Source: Escherichia coli (GTDB lineage: Bacteria > Pseudomonadota > Gammaproteobacteria > Enterobacterales > Enterobacteriaceae). Taken from it: a stretch of DNA of 64,000 nucleotides. Position 1 is the stretch's first letter; every line of letters starts with the position of its first letter. Below, in pieces: positions 21,079 to 46,302 of the stretch. Position numbers and translations under genes: made by a program. Where the stretch lies: the NCBI RefSeq assembly GCF_044324875.1, contig NZ_CP172185.1; one strand, given 5' to 3'. The notes under the pieces were generated by a model. That model was not told the DNA's origin, did not search any database, and saw only the letters and a list, made by a program, of their open reading frames with translations.

Positions 21079-21672
21079 ATGACTTCTCTGTATTTAGCTT
21101 CCGGTTCTCCGCGTCGTCAGGAGTTACTTGCGCAACTTGGCGTAACCTTTGAACGTATTGTTACGGGCATTGAGGAGCAGCGTCAGCCGCAGGAGAGCGC
21201 GCAGCAGTATGTTGTGCGTCTGGCGCGCGAGAAAGCACAGGCGGGTGTCGCGCAAACGGCGCAGGATCTCCCGGTGTTGGGTGCGGATACTATCGTTATC
21301 CTGAATGGAGAAGTGCTGGAGAAACCGCGCGGCGCAGAGCATGCGGCGCAGATGTTGCGCAAATTATCGGGGCAGACCCATCAGGTGATGACGGCAGTGG
21401 CGTTGGCCGACAGTCAGCACATTCTCGATTGCCTGGTGGTCACCGATGTGACTTTCAGAACGTTAACAGACGAAGACATCGCGGGCTATGTCGCCAGCGG
21501 TGAACCGTTAGATAAAGCAGGTGCATACGGTATTCAGGGGCTGGGTGGCTGTTTTGTCAGGAAGATAAATGGCAGCTATCACGCCGTAGTCGGCTTACCG
21601 CTGGTTGAAACGTATGAATTATTAAGTAATTTTAACGCACTGCGTGAGAAAAGGGATAAACATGACGGCTGA
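21079..21672 (+). CDS. yhdE: Maf-family nucleoside triphosphate pyrophosphatase (YhdE)
   Basis: ORF track 21019..21672; start set at [22 protein letters not shown] (197 aa); Maf signature SGSPRR. Confidence 0.92.
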
Positions 21673-23131
21673 ATTGTTGGTAAACGTAACGCCTTCGGAA
21701 ACGCGAGTGGCGTATATTGATGGCGGTATTCTGCAGGAAATTCATATTGAACGTGAGGCGCGACGCGGAATAGTAGGCAATATCTACAAGGGTCGTGTAA
21801 GTCGTGTACTTCCGGGTATGCAGGCGGCTTTTGTAGATATTGGGCTGGATAAAGCCGCGTTTCTTCATGCATCCGATATCATGCCGCACACTGAATGTGT
21901 GGCGGGTGAAGAACAAAAGCAATTCACGGTACGCGACATCTCGGAACTGGTCCGTCAGGGGCAAGATCTGATGGTGCAGGTGGTGAAAGATCCGCTTGGC
22001 ACTAAAGGTGCGCGCCTGACTACCGATATCACGCTGCCTTCTCGCTATCTGGTGTTTATGCCAGGGGCTTCTCACGTTGGGGTTTCCCAACGTATTGAAA
22101 GCGAATCAGAACGTGAACGCCTGAAAAAAGTGGTCGCAGAGTATTGCGACGAGCAGGGCGGGTTTATCATCCGTACCGCAGCGGAAGGGGTTGGCGAGGC
22201 TGAACTGGCCTCCGATGCCGCTTATCTGAAACGCGTCTGGACCAAAGTTATGGAGCGTAAAAAGCGCCCGCAGACTCGTTATCAGCTGTACGGCGAACTG
22301 GCGCTGGCGCAGCGTGTTCTGCGTGATTTCGCCGACGCCGAACTCGACCGCATTCGCGTTGACTCACGCCTGACTTACGAAGCATTGCTGGAGTTTACCT
22401 CGGAGTACATTCCCGAGATGACCAGCAAGCTGGAGCATTACACCGGACGCCAGCCGATTTTCGATCTCTTTGATGTCGAAAACGAAATTCAGCGAGCGCT
22501 GGAACGCAAAGTAGAACTGAAATCCGGTGGCTATCTGATTATCGACCAGACCGAAGCGATGACCACCGTAGACATCAATACCGGGGCGTTTGTCGGTCAT
22601 CGCAATCTGGACGACACCATTTTCAATACCAATATTGAAGCGACGCAGGCTATCGCTCGCCAGTTACGGTTGCGTAATCTGGGCGGGATTATCATTATTG
22701 ATTTCATCGATATGAATAATGAAGATCACCGCCGCCGCGTGCTGCACTCGCTGGAGCAGGCGTTGAGCAAAGACCGGGTGAAAACCAGCGTTAATGGTTT
22801 TTCGGCGCTGGGGCTGGTGGAGATGACGCGTAAACGCACCCGCGAAAGCATTGAGCACGTACTATGTAACGAATGCCCAACCTGCCACGGTCGCGGAACG
22901 GTGAAAACCGTGGAAACGGTATGCTATGAAATCATGCGCGAGATTGTTCGTGTACACCATGCTTATGATTCCGACCGTTTCCTGGTCTATGCTTCTCCGG
23001 CAGTAGCTGAAGCCTTGAAAGGTGAAGAGTCACACTCGCTGGCGGAAGTGGAAATTTTCGTTGGCAAACAGGTTAAAGTACAAATTGAACCGCTCTATAA
23101 CCAGGAGCAGTTTGACGTCGTAATGATGTAA
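21662..23131 (+). CDS. rng: Ribonuclease G
   Basis: ORF track 21644..23131; start set at [31 protein letters not shown] (489 aa); S1 domain plus RNase E/G catalytic core; overlaps yhdE end. Confidence 0.95.
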
Positions 23132-40965: not shown

Positions 40966-41361
<396 letters not shown>

Positions 41362-41393
41362 TTGGCTTCTGCTCCGGCAGAAAACAATTTGCG

Positions 41394-41421
41394 AAAAAAC
41401 CCGCTTCGGCGGGTTTTTTTA
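41394..41421 (+). terminator. Intrinsic terminator of rplM-rpsI operon
   Basis: aaaaaa-cccgc-ttcg-gcggg-ttttttt. Confidence 0.9.
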
Positions 41422-41515
41422 TGGCCTAAGTCCGAATCCAGCCTCTTTTCCTTCTCACTACAGCATTATTCTCTGTAAACGGTATTTTCCTCGCACTATA
41501 GAAAAGGATATCGCG

Positions 41516-42310
41516 ATGGGATTTTTTAATACATTGTTTAATAAGAAAGAATCATTAACGCTGTCGAATAAATGGGAATTCTTTATTACCACGGTGGAAG
41601 ATAATGTAACGGGCATACGTGTAGATATTGGCGCAATTGAGGACGAAAAATTTGATCGTCTTATCCACACATGGTTTTTACGTGTCCGTTATACTGACTG
41701 TTATGAAAACGGTTTTCCGCAACCTGATGAAACACAGCGTTTAAATCGTATTGAGGACTGGCTTGAGGCGCAGGGTAAAACACTACCGATCTGGCTAGTG
41801 GGTGTGGTTACGCAACAAGGTTCACGCGATTTTGTTTTCCAGTCAGAAAAAGACCTGGACTGGGAAAAGACATTGGATAAATTGTTGGCAGGTGGCCCGG
41901 AGCTCGCTTGCAGCTTTAATGAGAGTAAAAACGACCACGGAAATTACTACCGCCAGTTTTTGTATCCAACCAAATACGACTGGAACTGGATACACGATTC
42001 CCGAGTATGCCGCGGGTTACTGGAGCATGGTGACGATTTGACTCTCCCACGCACCATCGATTATTACGCGACATTGCCGACAGAAACTGCGGCCCACGCC
42101 TTTGTGGAGGACGTGACGAAATTGCCATATGGCATCACGCTGGTGAGCATTCGGATGAACGACCAACAACCGGAGTATATGGCGTCATTGATTAACACTG
42201 ATGCTCCGGAACAATGGCATATGACCGATATCACATGCCAGCTTACCGATTTGGCGGAAAAGCATGGAGGTAGTTTTGATGGCTGGGGCGCACCGATAGC
42301 AACGGCATAA
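41516..42310 (+). CDS. Hypothetical protein, 264 aa; putative DUF695 (N-terminal) + RraB-like (C-terminal) domains; not present at this locus in K-12 as I recall it
   Basis: Long ORF 41285..42310 in track; the upstream part overlaps rpsI and its terminator, so start set at first ATG after the terminator (41516), which has an AAGGA RBS 7 bp upstream. Translation MGFFNTLFNKKESLTLSNKWEFFITTVEDNVTGIRVDIGAIED...LTDLAEKHGGSFDGWGAPIATA. Domain call is from motif resemblance by memory, not from a search. Confidence 0.8.
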   Translation: MGFFNTLFNKKESLTLSNKWEFFITTVEDNVTGIRVDIGAIEDEKFDRLIHTWFLRVRYTDCYENGFPQPDETQRLNRIEDWLEAQGKTLPIWLVGVVTQQGSRDFVFQSEKDLDWEKTLDKLLAGGPELACSFNESKNDHGNYYRQFLYPTKYDWNWIHDSRVCRGLLEHGDDLTLPRTIDYYATLPTETAAHAFVEDVTKLPYGITLVSIRMNDQQPEYMASLINTDAPEQWHMTDITCQLTDLAEKHGGSFDGWGAPIATA

Positions 42311-42578
42311 AGGTTTAAAACAACATTCCCGGTGGGGACTAAGTCAAGCATTTCAGACTAAAGCGCATCTCTTTTTCCCCATTTCCGGCATCGACTCACC
42401 ACAAAGGTCGCAAAATCTGGTAAACTATCATCCAATTTTCTGCCCAAATGTCGGGTATTGCTCATTTTTTGTTTAATTTTCGAACAAAGAGAGTCGTTCC
42501 TTACTGGGTAACACAACTTCTGACTGGCCACCTGGTGGCTGGTAGCAGTAAAAATTCTGACTATACCTGGAGGTTTTC

Positions 42579-43217
42579 ATGGCTGTCGCTGCCAACAAAC
42601 GTTCGGTAATGACGCTGTTTTCCGGTCCTACTGACATCTATAGCCATCAGGTCCGCATTGTGCTGGCTGAGAAAGGTGTAAGTTTCGAGATCGAACACGT
42701 GGAAAAGGACAATCCGCCTCAGGATCTGATTGACCTCAACCCGAATCAGAGCGTTCCGACCCTGGTGGATCGTGAGCTGACCCTGTGGGAATCTCGCATC
42801 ATTATGGAATATCTGGATGAGCGTTTCCCGCATCCGCCACTGATGCCTGTTTACCCGGTAGCTCGCGGTGAAAGCCGTCTGTACATGCATCGCATCGAAA
42901 AAGACTGGTACACGCTGATGAACACCATCATCAACGGTTCAGCTTCTGAAGCAGATGCCGCACGTAAGCAACTGCGCGAAGAACTGCTGGCGATTGCGCC
43001 GGTCTTCGGTCAGAAGCCGTACTTCCTGAGCGATGAGTTCAGCCTGGTCGATTGCTACCTTGCTCCGCTGCTGTGGCGTCTGCCGCAACTGGGTATCGAG
43101 TTCAGCGGCCCGGGTGCGAAAGAGCTGAAAGGCTATATGACCCGCGTCTTTGAGCGTGACTCTTTCCTTGCTTCTTTAACTGAAGCTGAACGTGAAATGC
43201 GTCTGGGCCGGAGTTAA
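42579..43217 (+). CDS. sspA: Stringent starvation protein A
   Basis: ORF track 42579..43217 (212 aa) MAVAANKRSVMTLFSGPTDIYSHQVRIVLAEKGVSFEIEHVEKDNPPQDLIDLNP...; GST-like fold. Confidence 0.97.
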   Translation: MAVAANKRSVMTLFSGPTDIYSHQVRIVLAEKGVSFEIEHVEKDNPPQDLIDLNPNQSVPTLVDRELTLWESRIIMEYLDERFPHPPLMPVYPVARGESRLYMHRIEKDWYTLMNTIINGSASEADAARKQLREELLAIAPVFGQKPYFLSDEFSLVDCYLAPLLWRLPQLGIEFSGPGAKELKGYMTRVFERDSFLASLTEAEREMRLGRS

Positions 43218-43763: not shown

Positions 43764-45131
43764 TTAATAAAATAGCGTGATAGTGGCAATCATATTCACC
43801 ACGAAACCGACTGCCATGGGGATCGCTGTCCGCTTCACTACCGCAAAAGGCGAAACGCCTGCAATTCCTGACGTAACGACCACCACCGCAGTAATCGGCG
43901 AAACAGCGCGCGCTAGCGTCGTGGCAAAATGCATCGGCATAATCATTACAACCGCTGGTACATGTAGTCCGGCTGCGATATTCGGAATAAGACTGGCAAA
44001 TGACATAAACGGCGCATTGCCTGAGCCCATCACAATGGCACAAATGGCAATGACCAGCGCCATAATAATCATCACGCCAATACCGCCCAGGCCAGAATGC
44101 TCCGCACCCCTGATAACCGCATCGACAGTGCCAATCGTCGTTAAGCCTTTCGCAAATATTTCACCCGCGACCACCAGCGTTACCACGTTGGCAAACTGCG
44201 TACCCATGCCGTCAAAAAACGCCTGCACATCGTCCATTGTTTCGCGCAAGTTATGCTTGCGGAAGAACTCAACAAACATCGTCACCGTCAAACTCAGTAA
44301 CATCACCACCACCAGATGCAGTTCTGACTGCATCAGCCCGACGTGGGCAAGGAACAGCGAGCCGAGCATCAGGATTAACGGCATCACAGGTAAAATGGCG
44401 TAATAGAGCGGCGGGACATTATCGAGAGCTTTTTGCTCTGCCTGTTCGTGATTGATATTTTTATCTTTTTTGTCGAAAGCGCGTTGCACGAAAAAGTGGG
44501 AGATCGCCACCGAGATAATGACGCAAGAGGCGACCGGAAGCTGGTAGTGGAAGAAGTAAGTGGCAATTTTCATTCCTGCTACCTGGGCAGCAAAAATGGA
44601 GTTCGTTTCCAGAATCCCCCACTCAATGGACATGGTGGTTGCGATAACCGCCACCGCAGAGAGACGACTTACTCCCAGACTCACCAGCGTCGGAAATAAG
44701 GTGACCATCAGCAACATACCCAGACCGGAGGCGCTGGTAATAAACTGCGCCATGATTTGGCCGATGACGTAAGTTGCCGACAGAATAATATACGGCGAGC
44801 GAATAAGTTTTAACGGGCGGCTTAACAAGCTCACCATCGCACGACTGGCCCCTATGCGCTCCATATAGCGGGCATAACCGCCCACTGCCATAATCGACAG
44901 CCCCAATCCGGCAATGCGGTTGGACAGCATGCGCAGGATTTCATTATAAATATCGACGATCAAGTAGCCGCTGCTTTTGGCGGGATCGAGCACACCACCG
45001 AACCCTAACCAGACACCGCACATCATCAGGAAGATACCTGCGGCAGCCAGCACCACCTGAGGTTTGTAGTTTTTCAGGATCAAATAGCCCATCGTAATTA
45101 ATACGATGACAGATATAATTATGCCGAACAT
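43764..45131 (-). CDS. dcuD: Putative C4-dicarboxylate transporter DcuD (DcuC family)
   Basis: ORF track 43764..45149; start set at [27 protein letters not shown] (455 aa); polytopic membrane protein; divergent from nanR. Confidence 0.9.
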
Positions 45132-45510
45132 TGTTGAACTCCGTGTCAAAAGAAAACGGTCAATCCCATAAACGGCAGATTGAAAACAATGATGTTATAT
45201 TTTTTGCAAGGCTATTTATGGTGCGGATGTCGTGTTTTTAATTGTAGATGAGGTGATTTTTCATTAAAAAATATGCGCTTATGATTATTTTGTAAGAACA
45301 CATTCATAATATTCATAATACTTGTTAATAGTCTTATGAATAATTCAATCGGGATGTTTTTATCTGCGTTACATTAATTTTTCGCAATAGTTAATTATTC
45401 AGTTAATTATAGTAATGATGAGGCACAAAGAGAAAACCCCGCCATTTCCCCCTACTTTCAATCCTGTGATAGGATGTCACTGATGATGTTAATCACACTG
45501 ACCTTACAGA

Positions 45511-46302
45511 ATGGGCCTTATGAACGCATTTGATTCGCAAACCGAAGATTCTTCACCTGCAATTGGCCGCAACTTACGCAGCCGCCCGCTGGCGCGTAAA
45601 AAACTCTCCGAAATGGTGGAAGAAGAGCTGGAACAGATGATCCGCCGTCGTGAATTTGGCGAAGGTGAACAATTACCGTCTGAACGCGAGCTGATGGCGT
45701 TCTTTAACGTCGGGCGTCCTTCGGTGCGTGAAGCGCTGGCAGCGTTAAAACGCAAAGGTCTGGTGCAAATAAACAACGGCGAACGCGCTCGCGTCTCGCG
45801 TCCTTCTGCGGACACCATCATCGGCGAGCTTTCCGGTATGGCGAAAGATTTCCTTTCTCATCCTGGCGGGATTGCCCATTTCGAACAATTACGTCTGTTC
45901 TTTGAATCCAGCCTAGTGCGCTATGCGGCTGAACACGCCACCGATGAGCAAATCGATTTGCTGGCAAAAGCACTGGAAATCAACAGTCAGTCGCTGGATA
46001 ACAACGCGGCATTCATTCGTTCAGACGTTGATTTCCACCGCGTGCTGGCGGAGATCCCCGGTAACCCAATCTTCATGGCGATCCACGTTGCCCTGCTCGA
46101 CTGGCTGATCGCCGCACGTCCAACCGTGGCTGATCAGGCTCTGCACGAGCATAACAACGTTAGCTATCAACAGCATATTGCGATCGTTGATGCGATCCGC
46201 CGCCACGATCCCGATGAAGCCGATCGTGCGTTGCAATCGCATCTCAACAGCGTCTCTGCTACCTGGCACGCCTTCGGTCAGACCACCAACAAAAAGAAAT
46301 AA
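45511..46302 (+). CDS. nanR: GntR/FadR-family repressor of sialic acid catabolism NanR
   Basis: ORF track 45511..46302 (263 aa) [76 protein letters not shown]... Confidence 0.96.

Follow-up and report, generated by a model that had tools for sequence, protein, structure and literature searches.

Locus organization and gene model

The window analyzed here is a stretch of 64,000 nt of Escherichia coli DNA. It carries, in this order, degS-degQ-zapG, zapE-rplM-rpsI, the gene under study, sspA-sspB, a gene for a dcuD-type transporter and nanR. The region around the gene is a core E. coli chromosomal block, and over 12 kb the window is 99.0% identical to the best-matching complete E. coli genomes. 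The gene itself, located between the end of rpsI (position 41361) and the start of sspA (position 42579), encodes a DUF695 domain followed by an RraB-family domain and is referred to as the DUF695-RraB gene in the following. For the coordinates of all features see Table 1.

Table 1. Features of the rpsI-sspA interval in window coordinates, with the basis of each assignment.
Feature	Position	Strand	Basis
rplM-rpsI intrinsic terminator, stem AAAAAACCCGC / GCGGGTTTTTT plus U-run	41391..41426	+	inverted repeat, RNA fold
Upstream spacer of the DUF695-RraB gene	41427..41515	+	conserved blocks and Shine-Dalgarno sequence
896-bp segment absent from K-12	41439..42334	.	global alignment of rpsI-sspA spacers; flanks align on both sides
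DUF695-RraB CDS, 264 aa, stop codon included	41516..42310	+	ATG start, intact ORF
DUF695 domain, residues 18–150	41567..41965	+	Pfam PF05117
RraB-family domain, residues 158–258	41987..42289	+	Pfam PF06877; ends in G-x-[FY]-D-G-W

The translation corresponds to a protein of 30.5 kDa with a computed pI of 4.69. A Shine-Dalgarno sequence, AAGGA (41504–41508), is located 7 nt ahead of the start codon. This start is supported by residues 1–17 of the protein, which are kept in the Escherichia and Salmonella orthologues. A longer, GTG-started reading frame (41285–42310) was rejected as the true gene because it overlaps rpsI and crosses the rpsI terminator.

The terminator is built up from a perfect 11-bp inverted repeat (41394–41404 and 41409–41419) with a predicted RNA folding energy of -17.2 kcal/mol (z-score -2.9), and its hairpin is kept in K-12, in other Escherichia and in Salmonella. 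Since this strong terminator separates rpsI from the gene, their adjacency need not mean co-regulation. An Rfam scan of the locus yielded only sub-threshold matches driven by the terminator hairpin (STnc370, 32.5 bits compared to a gathering score of 54), and the same scan of the Salmonella and Escherichia orthologous loci gave nothing at threshold.

In the gene-bearing loci, the stretch from the terminator to the start codon is conserved. A comparison of 160 nt upstream of the gene in the window and in L003, L004, L013 and L018 revealed the blocks …TAAGTCCGAATCCAG.CTCTTTTCC… and AGCATTATTCTC, which are common to the Escherichia and Salmonella orthologous loci. The gene is probably expressed from a weak promoter of its own downstream of the rpsI terminator; a sigma-70 consensus scan of the upstream region found no promoter on the plus strand. 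Transcription may also continue into sspAB, as there is no terminator behind the gene.

The gene for RNase G, rng (21662–23131; NCBIfam NF008689, 1031 bits), is also part of the window. It occupies its normal core-genome position 18.4 kb away, and its nearness is a coincidence, as had been supposed from the sequence alone.

Domain composition and family membership

A Pfam hmmscan identified both domains with high significance over the full length of the models: DUF695 (PF05117) with an E-value of 1.7e-32 and 113 bits (model positions 1–134 of 134) and RraB (PF06877) with an E-value of 1.3e-23 and 83.9 bits (model positions 1–101 of 102). The protein thus belongs to both domain families, in agreement with the sequence-only reading, which had proposed the two domains. 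The pattern W-x-F-[FY]...V-D-[IL]-G on which the assignment of the N-terminal domain was based corresponds to the consensus W.FY.......PASI.VDLG of 131 family members. Both peptide stretches quoted from the protein are present verbatim in the translation, and the strings quoted from E. coli RraB for comparison (IEHHLSADD, LEKAAVEAFKLGYEV and LAEKF..YDGWG) match the aligned K-12 protein. A cytoplasmic location had been predicted as well. The hydropathy scan is in line with this, since the highest Kyte-Doolittle mean over 19 residues is only 0.77, so that the protein has no membrane segment.

In a search of the NCBIfam models the only match was TIGR01619 (hyp_HI0040), with 18 bits and an E-value of 0.002. 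The alignment runs from end to end (residues 18–258 on model positions 4–246 of 250), but the score is far below the curated cut-off of 149.4 bits, so that the protein has to be placed on a distant branch and is not an equivalog of HI0040. The equivalog model of RraB proper, NF008393 (cut-off 82 bits), gave no match at E ≤ 1. The protein is thus not an orthologue of RraB either. It does show the broad DUF695-RraB architecture, with DUF695 ahead of RraB in a single chain of approximately 250 aa and a conserved packing of the two domains. With the TIGR01619/H. influenzae HI0040 type it shares the domain order, the length of approximately 250 aa as well as the predicted fold and packing (TM-scores of 0.8–0.9 to AlphaFold database members named after TIGR01619), whereas its sequence identity to most family members is only 20–30%.

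The family is large. A profile search against 1.84 billion cluster representatives resulted in 1,989 matches at E ≤ 1e-3 and 978 at E ≤ 1e-10. Nearly all of the representatives (approximately 2,000 clusters at 50% identity) are 240–270 aa long and match from end to end. Whole-length matches in the AlphaFold database (TM-scores of 0.8–0.98) came from Pseudomonadota, Bacteroidota, Bacillota, Actinomycetota, Planctomycetota, Verrucomicrobiota and Myxococcota and carry the names 'DUF695 domain-containing protein', 'TIGR01619 family protein' or 'Regulator of ribonuclease activity B'. The top match is an E. coli protein (A0A1M0CU14, 99% identity). In E. coli IAI39 the gene, which is 99.6% identical to the window gene at the DNA level, is annotated in RefSeq as 'DUF695 domain-containing protein' (WP_000505558.1). 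The DUF695 plus RraB-like architecture proposed from the sequence is therefore real, but it is not peculiar to this locus and not a novel fusion, because the two-domain form of approximately 250 aa is the standard form of the family, is already annotated and has been codified as TIGR01619.

Acidity is a family trait (median pI 4.5; pI below 7 in 130 of 131 members). The enteric subfamily, on the other hand, replaces several near-invariant residues (R97V, H183Y, R227N and W142G) and may for this reason lack the core activity of the family.

We also inspected family proteins with additional domains as possible Rosetta-stone clues; none of them gave a lead, and gene-call artefacts may be among them. 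In P0039 (568 aa) the C-terminal extension contains no Pfam domain, and the same holds for P0135 (450 aa). P0132 bears a DUF4299 domain and P0079 a fragmentary DUF1016_N.

Predicted structure

An AlphaFold model calculated with 131 diverse family members reached a pLDDT of 95.8 and a pTM of 0.88, compared to a pLDDT of 77.7 with nine close homologues only. The DUF695 domain is predicted to consist of a β-hairpin followed by a ferredoxin-like β-α-β-β-α-β unit. A short, helical linker bearing the invariant Pro151 connects it in the model to the RraB-family domain, which is modeled as a long N-terminal helix and a second ferredoxin-like β-α-β-β-α-β unit. In the model, the C-terminal domain has the RraB/VC0424 fold, a helix together with a ferredoxin-like sandwich, and the DUF695 domain is predicted to pack rigidly onto it. 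Residues 1–17 lie outside both Pfam domains and have a low pLDDT, yet are conserved in the subfamily. An origin of the two domains by internal duplication was considered and discarded: an hhalign comparison of their sub-alignments resulted in a probability of only 3.4%, and the domains are fold analogues only.

Within the RraB family, a structure has been solved only for Vibrio cholerae VC0424 (PDB-entry 1nxi); it covers residues ~150–262 of our protein with 16% identity. In a PDB profile search this match required the deeper alignment; the close homologues alone returned nothing. No solved structure covering the DUF695 domain was found in this search.

A fold search identified the RraB family as the only specific structural relative, the remaining hits being generic ferredoxin-like, ACT and RAM modules. 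Tandem ACT/RAM modules (PDB-entry 2nyi, the ACT domains of SerB2 and the GcvR-like entry 1u8s) likewise consist of two consecutive ferredoxin-like β-α-β-β-α-β domains. The protein might be pictured as a ligand-sensing regulator that binds a small metabolite at a domain interface and relays the signal to another protein. The Arg, His and Asp residues that the wider family conserves would also be compatible with a small-ligand site, which speaks against a pure binding protein. We regard a ligand sensor as a rather unlikely explanation.

Relationship to RraB

The likeness between E. coli RraB and the C-terminal half of the protein, noted earlier from short sequence motifs, turned out to be remote homology. 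An alignment with hhalign gave a probability of 97.4% and an E-value of 1.4e-11 at 19% identity, whereas BLASTP against K-12 RraB aligned just 17 residues. Both proteins share the homologous C-terminal domain with its terminal LAEK..-[FY]DGWG motif, and both are acidic and cytoplasmic. RraB, however, is a single domain of 138 aa, while the DUF695-RraB protein comprises 264 aa with an additional DUF695 domain of 150 aa. Moreover, where RraB and VC0424 have an acidic hairpin (EAEETEDEDGN), our protein reads MNDQQPEY, as judged from alignments inspected by eye.

According to the statements on RraB in two articles (PMC4435900, PMC10126417; after Gao et al. 2006), RraB (YjgD), an inhibitor of RNase E, binds residues 694–727 of the RNase E scaffold and inhibits or remodels the degradosome. 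Of the 5,426 complete E. coli genomes, 5,425 contain rraB, and the carrier STLIN_13 possesses both genes. We also considered a link between the 48 genomes with a divergent rraB (80–90% identity) and the 48 carriers of the DUF695-RraB gene, and rejected it, because rraB of STLIN_13 is normal (98.6%).

The kinship raises the question of whether the protein serves its carriers as an accessory RraB paralogue, docking onto the C-terminal RNase E scaffold and modulating degradosome composition and RNase E-dependent decay. Its C-terminal domain clearly belongs to the RraB family and retains the terminal motif, its acidity resembles that of RraB, the host contains RNase E as a target, and the action of RraB itself is documented. 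The distance to RraB, with approximately 19% identity, a BLASTP alignment of 17 residues and no report of NF008393, argues against such a role, as does the loss of the acidic hairpin. Furthermore, the same fold and packing occur in Bacillota, Bacteroidota, Planctomycetota and Actinomycetota, and the nearest relatives outside the enterics belong to the Bacillota. To our knowledge, none of these four phyla has an RNase E scaffold of the E. coli type. Since the family is present in phyla without that scaffold, binding of RNase E cannot be its ancestral role. Altogether we consider an RNase E-directed function of the enteric protein unlikely.

Distribution and age of the gene

The DUF695-RraB gene was found in 48 of 5,426 complete E. 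coli genomes (roughly 1%). In all carriers it is chromosomal, single-copy, full-length, intact and annotated as a CDS, with an identity of 98.9–99.6%. The carriers include E. coli IAI39 and CE10, which we take to be members of phylogroup F. The GC content of the gene is 45.9%, compared to 51.5% for the window.

K-12 lacks the 896-bp segment and has 73 bp of unrelated sequence at the same place. This filler was examined as a possible deletion scar of the gene, but none of the gene-bearing loci matches it significantly. It is therefore synteny, not a scar, from which the direction of the event is deduced.

The same position between rpsI and sspA is occupied in Salmonella enterica Senftenberg NCTC10384, in E. 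whittamii, in Escherichia sp. E1V33 and in a third Escherichia species representative, and the same arrangement was observed on metagenomic contigs. The Salmonella enterica orthologues show 81–86% protein identity, and the cluster containing the Salmonella orthologue comprises 1,350 member sequences from many serovars. A scan of the GTDB representatives (alignment A2) returned the three Escherichia species representatives only, and S. enterica was not among them. A comparison with the Salmonella-type orthologue resulted in a DNA identity of 80.9%, a dS of 0.97 and a dN/dS of 0.11; the DNA identities of the flanking genes zapE and sspB are 77% and 81%. A divergence of this size from Salmonella is what vertically inherited orthologues typically show.

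No integrase, transposase or tRNA gene was found beside the gene. Flanking repeats as a signature of insertion were rejected, too: the only candidate is a 10-nt imperfect repeat, GG[C/A]CTAAGTC, at 41423 and 42336, which is compatible with chance. Genuine plasmids and phages essentially lack the gene. The 'plasmid' records that matched are chromosome-sized, and two 'phage' records are unannotated fragments of 2.7–3.5 kb.

The sequence-only reading had described the locus as a horizontally acquired single-gene islet. Of this, the accessory nature and the low GC content hold, i.e. the patchy distribution and atypical composition expected of an islet. The mobility signatures and the empty site in sister taxa that would complete the picture were not observed. 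Because orthologues occupy the same site in Salmonella and Escherichia, because their divergence is of the vertical type and because mobility genes are missing, the gene is best regarded as an old resident that was lost from most E. coli. These sequence comparisons are most economically explained if the gene was acquired long ago, in an ancestor of Escherichia and Salmonella, and was later lost repeatedly.

The donor may have been Bacillota-like. The closest relative outside the enterics (47% identity) is located after tilS-hpt-ftsH, a layout typical of Bacillota, and the next relatives, Breznakia pachnodae among them, show approximately 32% identity. The window allele differs from the Escherichia-clade allele with a dS of 0.63, compared to 0.13–0.32 for the flanks, and on two contigs the clade allele is bordered by flanks of the E. 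coli type. Both observations suggest some exchange of alleles by recombination at the locus.

Selection and retention

Comparison with three orthologues gave dN/dS values of 0.11–0.12 for the whole gene and for each domain separately. By this measure it is a real, working gene under purifying selection. The frame is intact in all 48 carriers.

These results also bear on the idea that the gene is a decaying remnant that has no current function in E. coli and is heading to loss. Its absence from about 99% of the complete E. coli genomes would be expected of a remnant, and neither a recognizable strong promoter nor several of the family-consensus residues are present. Against this stand the intact frame in 48 of 48 carriers, the low dN/dS in both domains over a dS of up to about 1, the conservation of the N-terminal peptide, the Shine-Dalgarno sequence and the upstream spacer, and the confident structure prediction (pLDDT 95.8). 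Decay is barely credible in view of these data.

Gene neighborhoods of the homologues

The enteric gene directly follows rplM-rpsI. In Erysipelotrichia-like Bacillota the homologue ends a co-directional run of rnmV (RNase M5), ksgA and ispE, located 4–18 bp after ispE. This arrangement was observed in four clusters at 50% identity. Since these four clusters represent one clade, the RNA/ribosome theme amounts to two independent contexts at most. Other homologues are found after pta in a tilS-hpt-ftsH-udg-pta neighborhood, between ybeD and dacA, before a gene of the phosphoglucomutase family (PGM_PMM) and after hypA.

A survey of this kind had been proposed in order to discriminate between defence islands and RNA-metabolism neighborhoods. 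Defence islands were not encountered. The contexts are housekeeping throughout, and two of them have an RNA/ribosome flavor. No toxin, defence, integrase or transposase gene adjoins the gene in the window or the homologue in any of 10 contexts. On a Sulfurimonas plasmid a CopG/PIN pair is located approximately 300 bp downstream of the homologue on the opposite strand; it is the only toxin-type gene nearby.

A single-gene phage-defence protein, an antitoxin or an immunity protein against a polymorphic toxin, residing on a horizontally acquired islet, had been put forward as an equally possible role. The patchy occurrence in E. coli (48 of 5,426 genomes), the low GC content and the lone position without operon partners are compatible with it, and many immunity proteins are likewise small and acidic. 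However, a PADLOC search gave 0 matches, with rplM, rpsI, sspA and sspB as neighbors instead of a defence system, and a PHROGs search gave nothing below an E-value of 0.1. A cognate toxin immediately adjacent to the gene, as expected for an immunity protein, was absent from the contexts examined, and so were defence and mobility genes in the window and the 10 homologue contexts. The near-absence from genuine plasmids and phages, the position syntenic across genera and a dN/dS of 0.11, which indicates purifying rather than diversifying selection, do not agree with such a role either. A literature search for RraB-like domains in connection with immunity returned nothing relevant; the one match combining an RNase regulator and an immunity protein concerns RraA. 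A role in defence or immunity is in our view very improbable.

The recurring RNA/ribosome theme can be extended to a more far-reaching proposal. The family as a whole could be a broad class of regulators of RNA-processing or ribosome-maturation enzymes, of which RraB would be a truncated γ-proteobacterial offshoot. The partner in Erysipelotrichia-like Bacillota would be RNase M5 and/or KsgA, with whose genes the homologue appears to share an operon, and the target of the Escherichia and Salmonella copy RNase E/G or a ribosome-associated factor. We give this proposal no more than an outside chance. If it were true, IAI39, CE10 and Salmonella Senftenberg, as carriers, would open the family to genetic work.

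Proposed mechanism

Based on the profile searches, the structural model and the comparative data, we tentatively propose the following joint explanation, to which we attach somewhat less than even confidence. In it, the gene is a selected member of the DUF695-RraB family and an old resident of its site, and its product would be a non-enzymatic binder acting in RNA processing or translation. The link to RNA processing or translation draws on the RNA/ribosome theme of the enteric and Bacillota neighborhoods; the unrelated housekeeping contexts of other homologues speak against it. The identity part of this explanation is near-certain; our confidence in the mechanism part is weak.

By analogy to RraB, the protein would be a stoichiometric, protein-binding regulator and not an enzyme. 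A binder is favored over an enzyme because RraB is the only specific structural relative, the other folds retrieved are regulatory or dimerization modules, and the family is acidic. In the proposed mechanism the acidic surface docks onto a basic, probably RNA-binding partner involved in RNA processing or translation. Docking would alter the activity of this partner or the composition of its complex. The DUF695 domain would provide a further surface for interaction or determine which partner is bound.

Significance for the family

The DUF695-RraB gene has already been annotated and belongs to a catalogued family of domains with unknown function. A literature search over 8 million full texts nevertheless retrieved no paper mentioning DUF695, PF05117, PF06877, TIGR01619 or HI0040, so that a large family distributed over many phyla is without mention in this collection. 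STM3343, a candidate Salmonella counterpart, has one mention, in a gene list and as 'unknown'.

Outside the γ-proteobacteria, the RNase E regulator RraB has its only widespread relative in this family. The family's recurrent place after the RNase M5-KsgA-IspE run in Bacillota is a concrete, testable lead, and natural E. coli and Salmonella carriers beside isogenic-like strains without the gene offer a convenient way to assign a function.

Sequence divergence at the rpsI-sspA locus

Comparison of the window allele of the DUF695-RraB gene with the Escherichia-clade allele (L004 and the metagenome contigs L006 and L007) gave a dS of 0.63. This is 2-5 times higher than the values of 0.13-0.32 for the flanking genes sspA, sspB and zapE. 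In addition, the clade-type allele in L006 and L007 lies inside E. coli-type flanks (sspA 99.5% identical, rplM and rpsI 100%). The raised dS relative to the flanks, together with this combination of clade-type allele and E. coli-type surroundings, suggests that the DUF695-RraB allele at the rpsI-sspA locus was replaced by recombination. For the coordinates of all features see the table.

The canonical rraB gene also has divergent alleles in E. coli. Its DNA identity to K-12 is only 80-90% in 48 of 5,426 complete genomes and at least 90% in all others. These 48 genomes are not identical with the 48 carriers of the DUF695-RraB gene, as STLIN_13 combines the latter with an rraB of 98.6% identity.

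Coordinates of the features in the window and in the compared loci
Feature	Location	Strand	Remarks
DUF695-RraB gene, window allele	window 41516-42310		
STnc370 (Salmonella sRNA family), sub-threshold Rfam match	window 41388-41453	-	32.5 bits vs gathering score 54; full model length
dcuD/dcuC-type anaerobic C4-dicarboxylate transporter gene	window 43764-45149	-	compared with L003, L004, L018
Sharp GC trough	window 45000-45600		34-37% vs about 51%; divergent intergenic region, dcuD-type gene/nanR
Salmonella Senftenberg orthologue	L018 4001-4795		
rraB locus	K-12 4478473-4478889		
rraB locus	L024 4474-4890		
62%-identical homologue	L008 1-920		also L009-L011
hypA and DUF695-RraB gene	L019 4650-5756		Sulfurimonas paralvinellae plasmid
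Stand-alone RraB gene	NZ_CP087125.1 287572-287931		Sulfurovum mangrovi
rnmV-ksgA-ispE-DUF695-RraB run	L016 3737-6783		Bacillota
rnmV-ksgA-ispE-DUF695-RraB run	L022 3799-6786		Bacillota
rnmV-ksgA-ispE-DUF695-RraB run	L025 2784-5801		Bacillota
rnmV-ksgA-ispE-DUF695-RraB run	L026 2789-5810		Bacillota

Gene start and neighbouring features

The start of the Salmonella orthologue is annotated inconsistently. The RefSeq form comprises 250 residues (beginning with MLSNKWEFF), a conserved ATG farther upstream yields 264 residues, and the UniProt models have 296 and 315 residues (AFDB entries Q57JC5 and A0A509BB74). Conservation of residues 1-17 between Escherichia and Salmonella favours the 264-residue form.

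The sub-threshold STnc370 match overlaps the bidirectional rpsI terminator and a conserved spacer block. Since Rfam searches of the Salmonella and Escherichia loci gave no hit at or above threshold, it is probably a chance match driven by the terminator.

A second presence/absence difference in this neighbourhood is the dcuD/dcuC-type gene. In the window, as in IAI39 and K-12, this gene separates sspB from nanR; it is missing from the Salmonella and Escherichia-clade loci (L003, L004 and L018), where nanR directly follows sspB.

Family members in other bacteria

Rare family members are lengthened by additional domains at the N-terminus: P0079 (379 residues) carries a fragmentary DUF1016_N, a domain that forms the N-terminal part of YhcG-type PD-(D/E)XK proteins, and P0132 (539 residues) carries DUF4299. 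These may be true fusions or gene-call artefacts.

Upstream of the 62%-identical bacterial homologue lies a sequence that matches the rpsI terminator region at 88% identity. In place of sspA, the homologue is followed by a LysR regulator gene and by genes encoding a protein of metallo-beta-lactamase fold (anti-Pycsar Apyc1-like), a short-chain dehydrogenase and a catalase. Thus, the downstream neighbours of the DUF695-RraB gene are not fixed outside Escherichia and Salmonella.

Hydrogenase-maturation genes adjoin family members in two Campylobacterota replicons. On the Sulfurimonas plasmid the DUF695-RraB gene follows hypA after 12 bp, and in Sulfurovum mangrovi a stand-alone RraB gene adjoins a HyaD/HybD-type maturation protease gene.

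Four different 50%-identity clusters, all from Erysipelotrichia-like Bacillota and including Breznakia pachnodae, have the DUF695-RraB gene at the end of a tightly packed co-directional run, behind rnmV (encoding RNase M5), ksgA and ispE; its distance from ispE is only 4-18 bp. From this arrangement, a gene with a 'regulator of ribonuclease'-type domain appears to be co-operonic with ribonuclease and rRNA methyltransferase genes in these bacteria.
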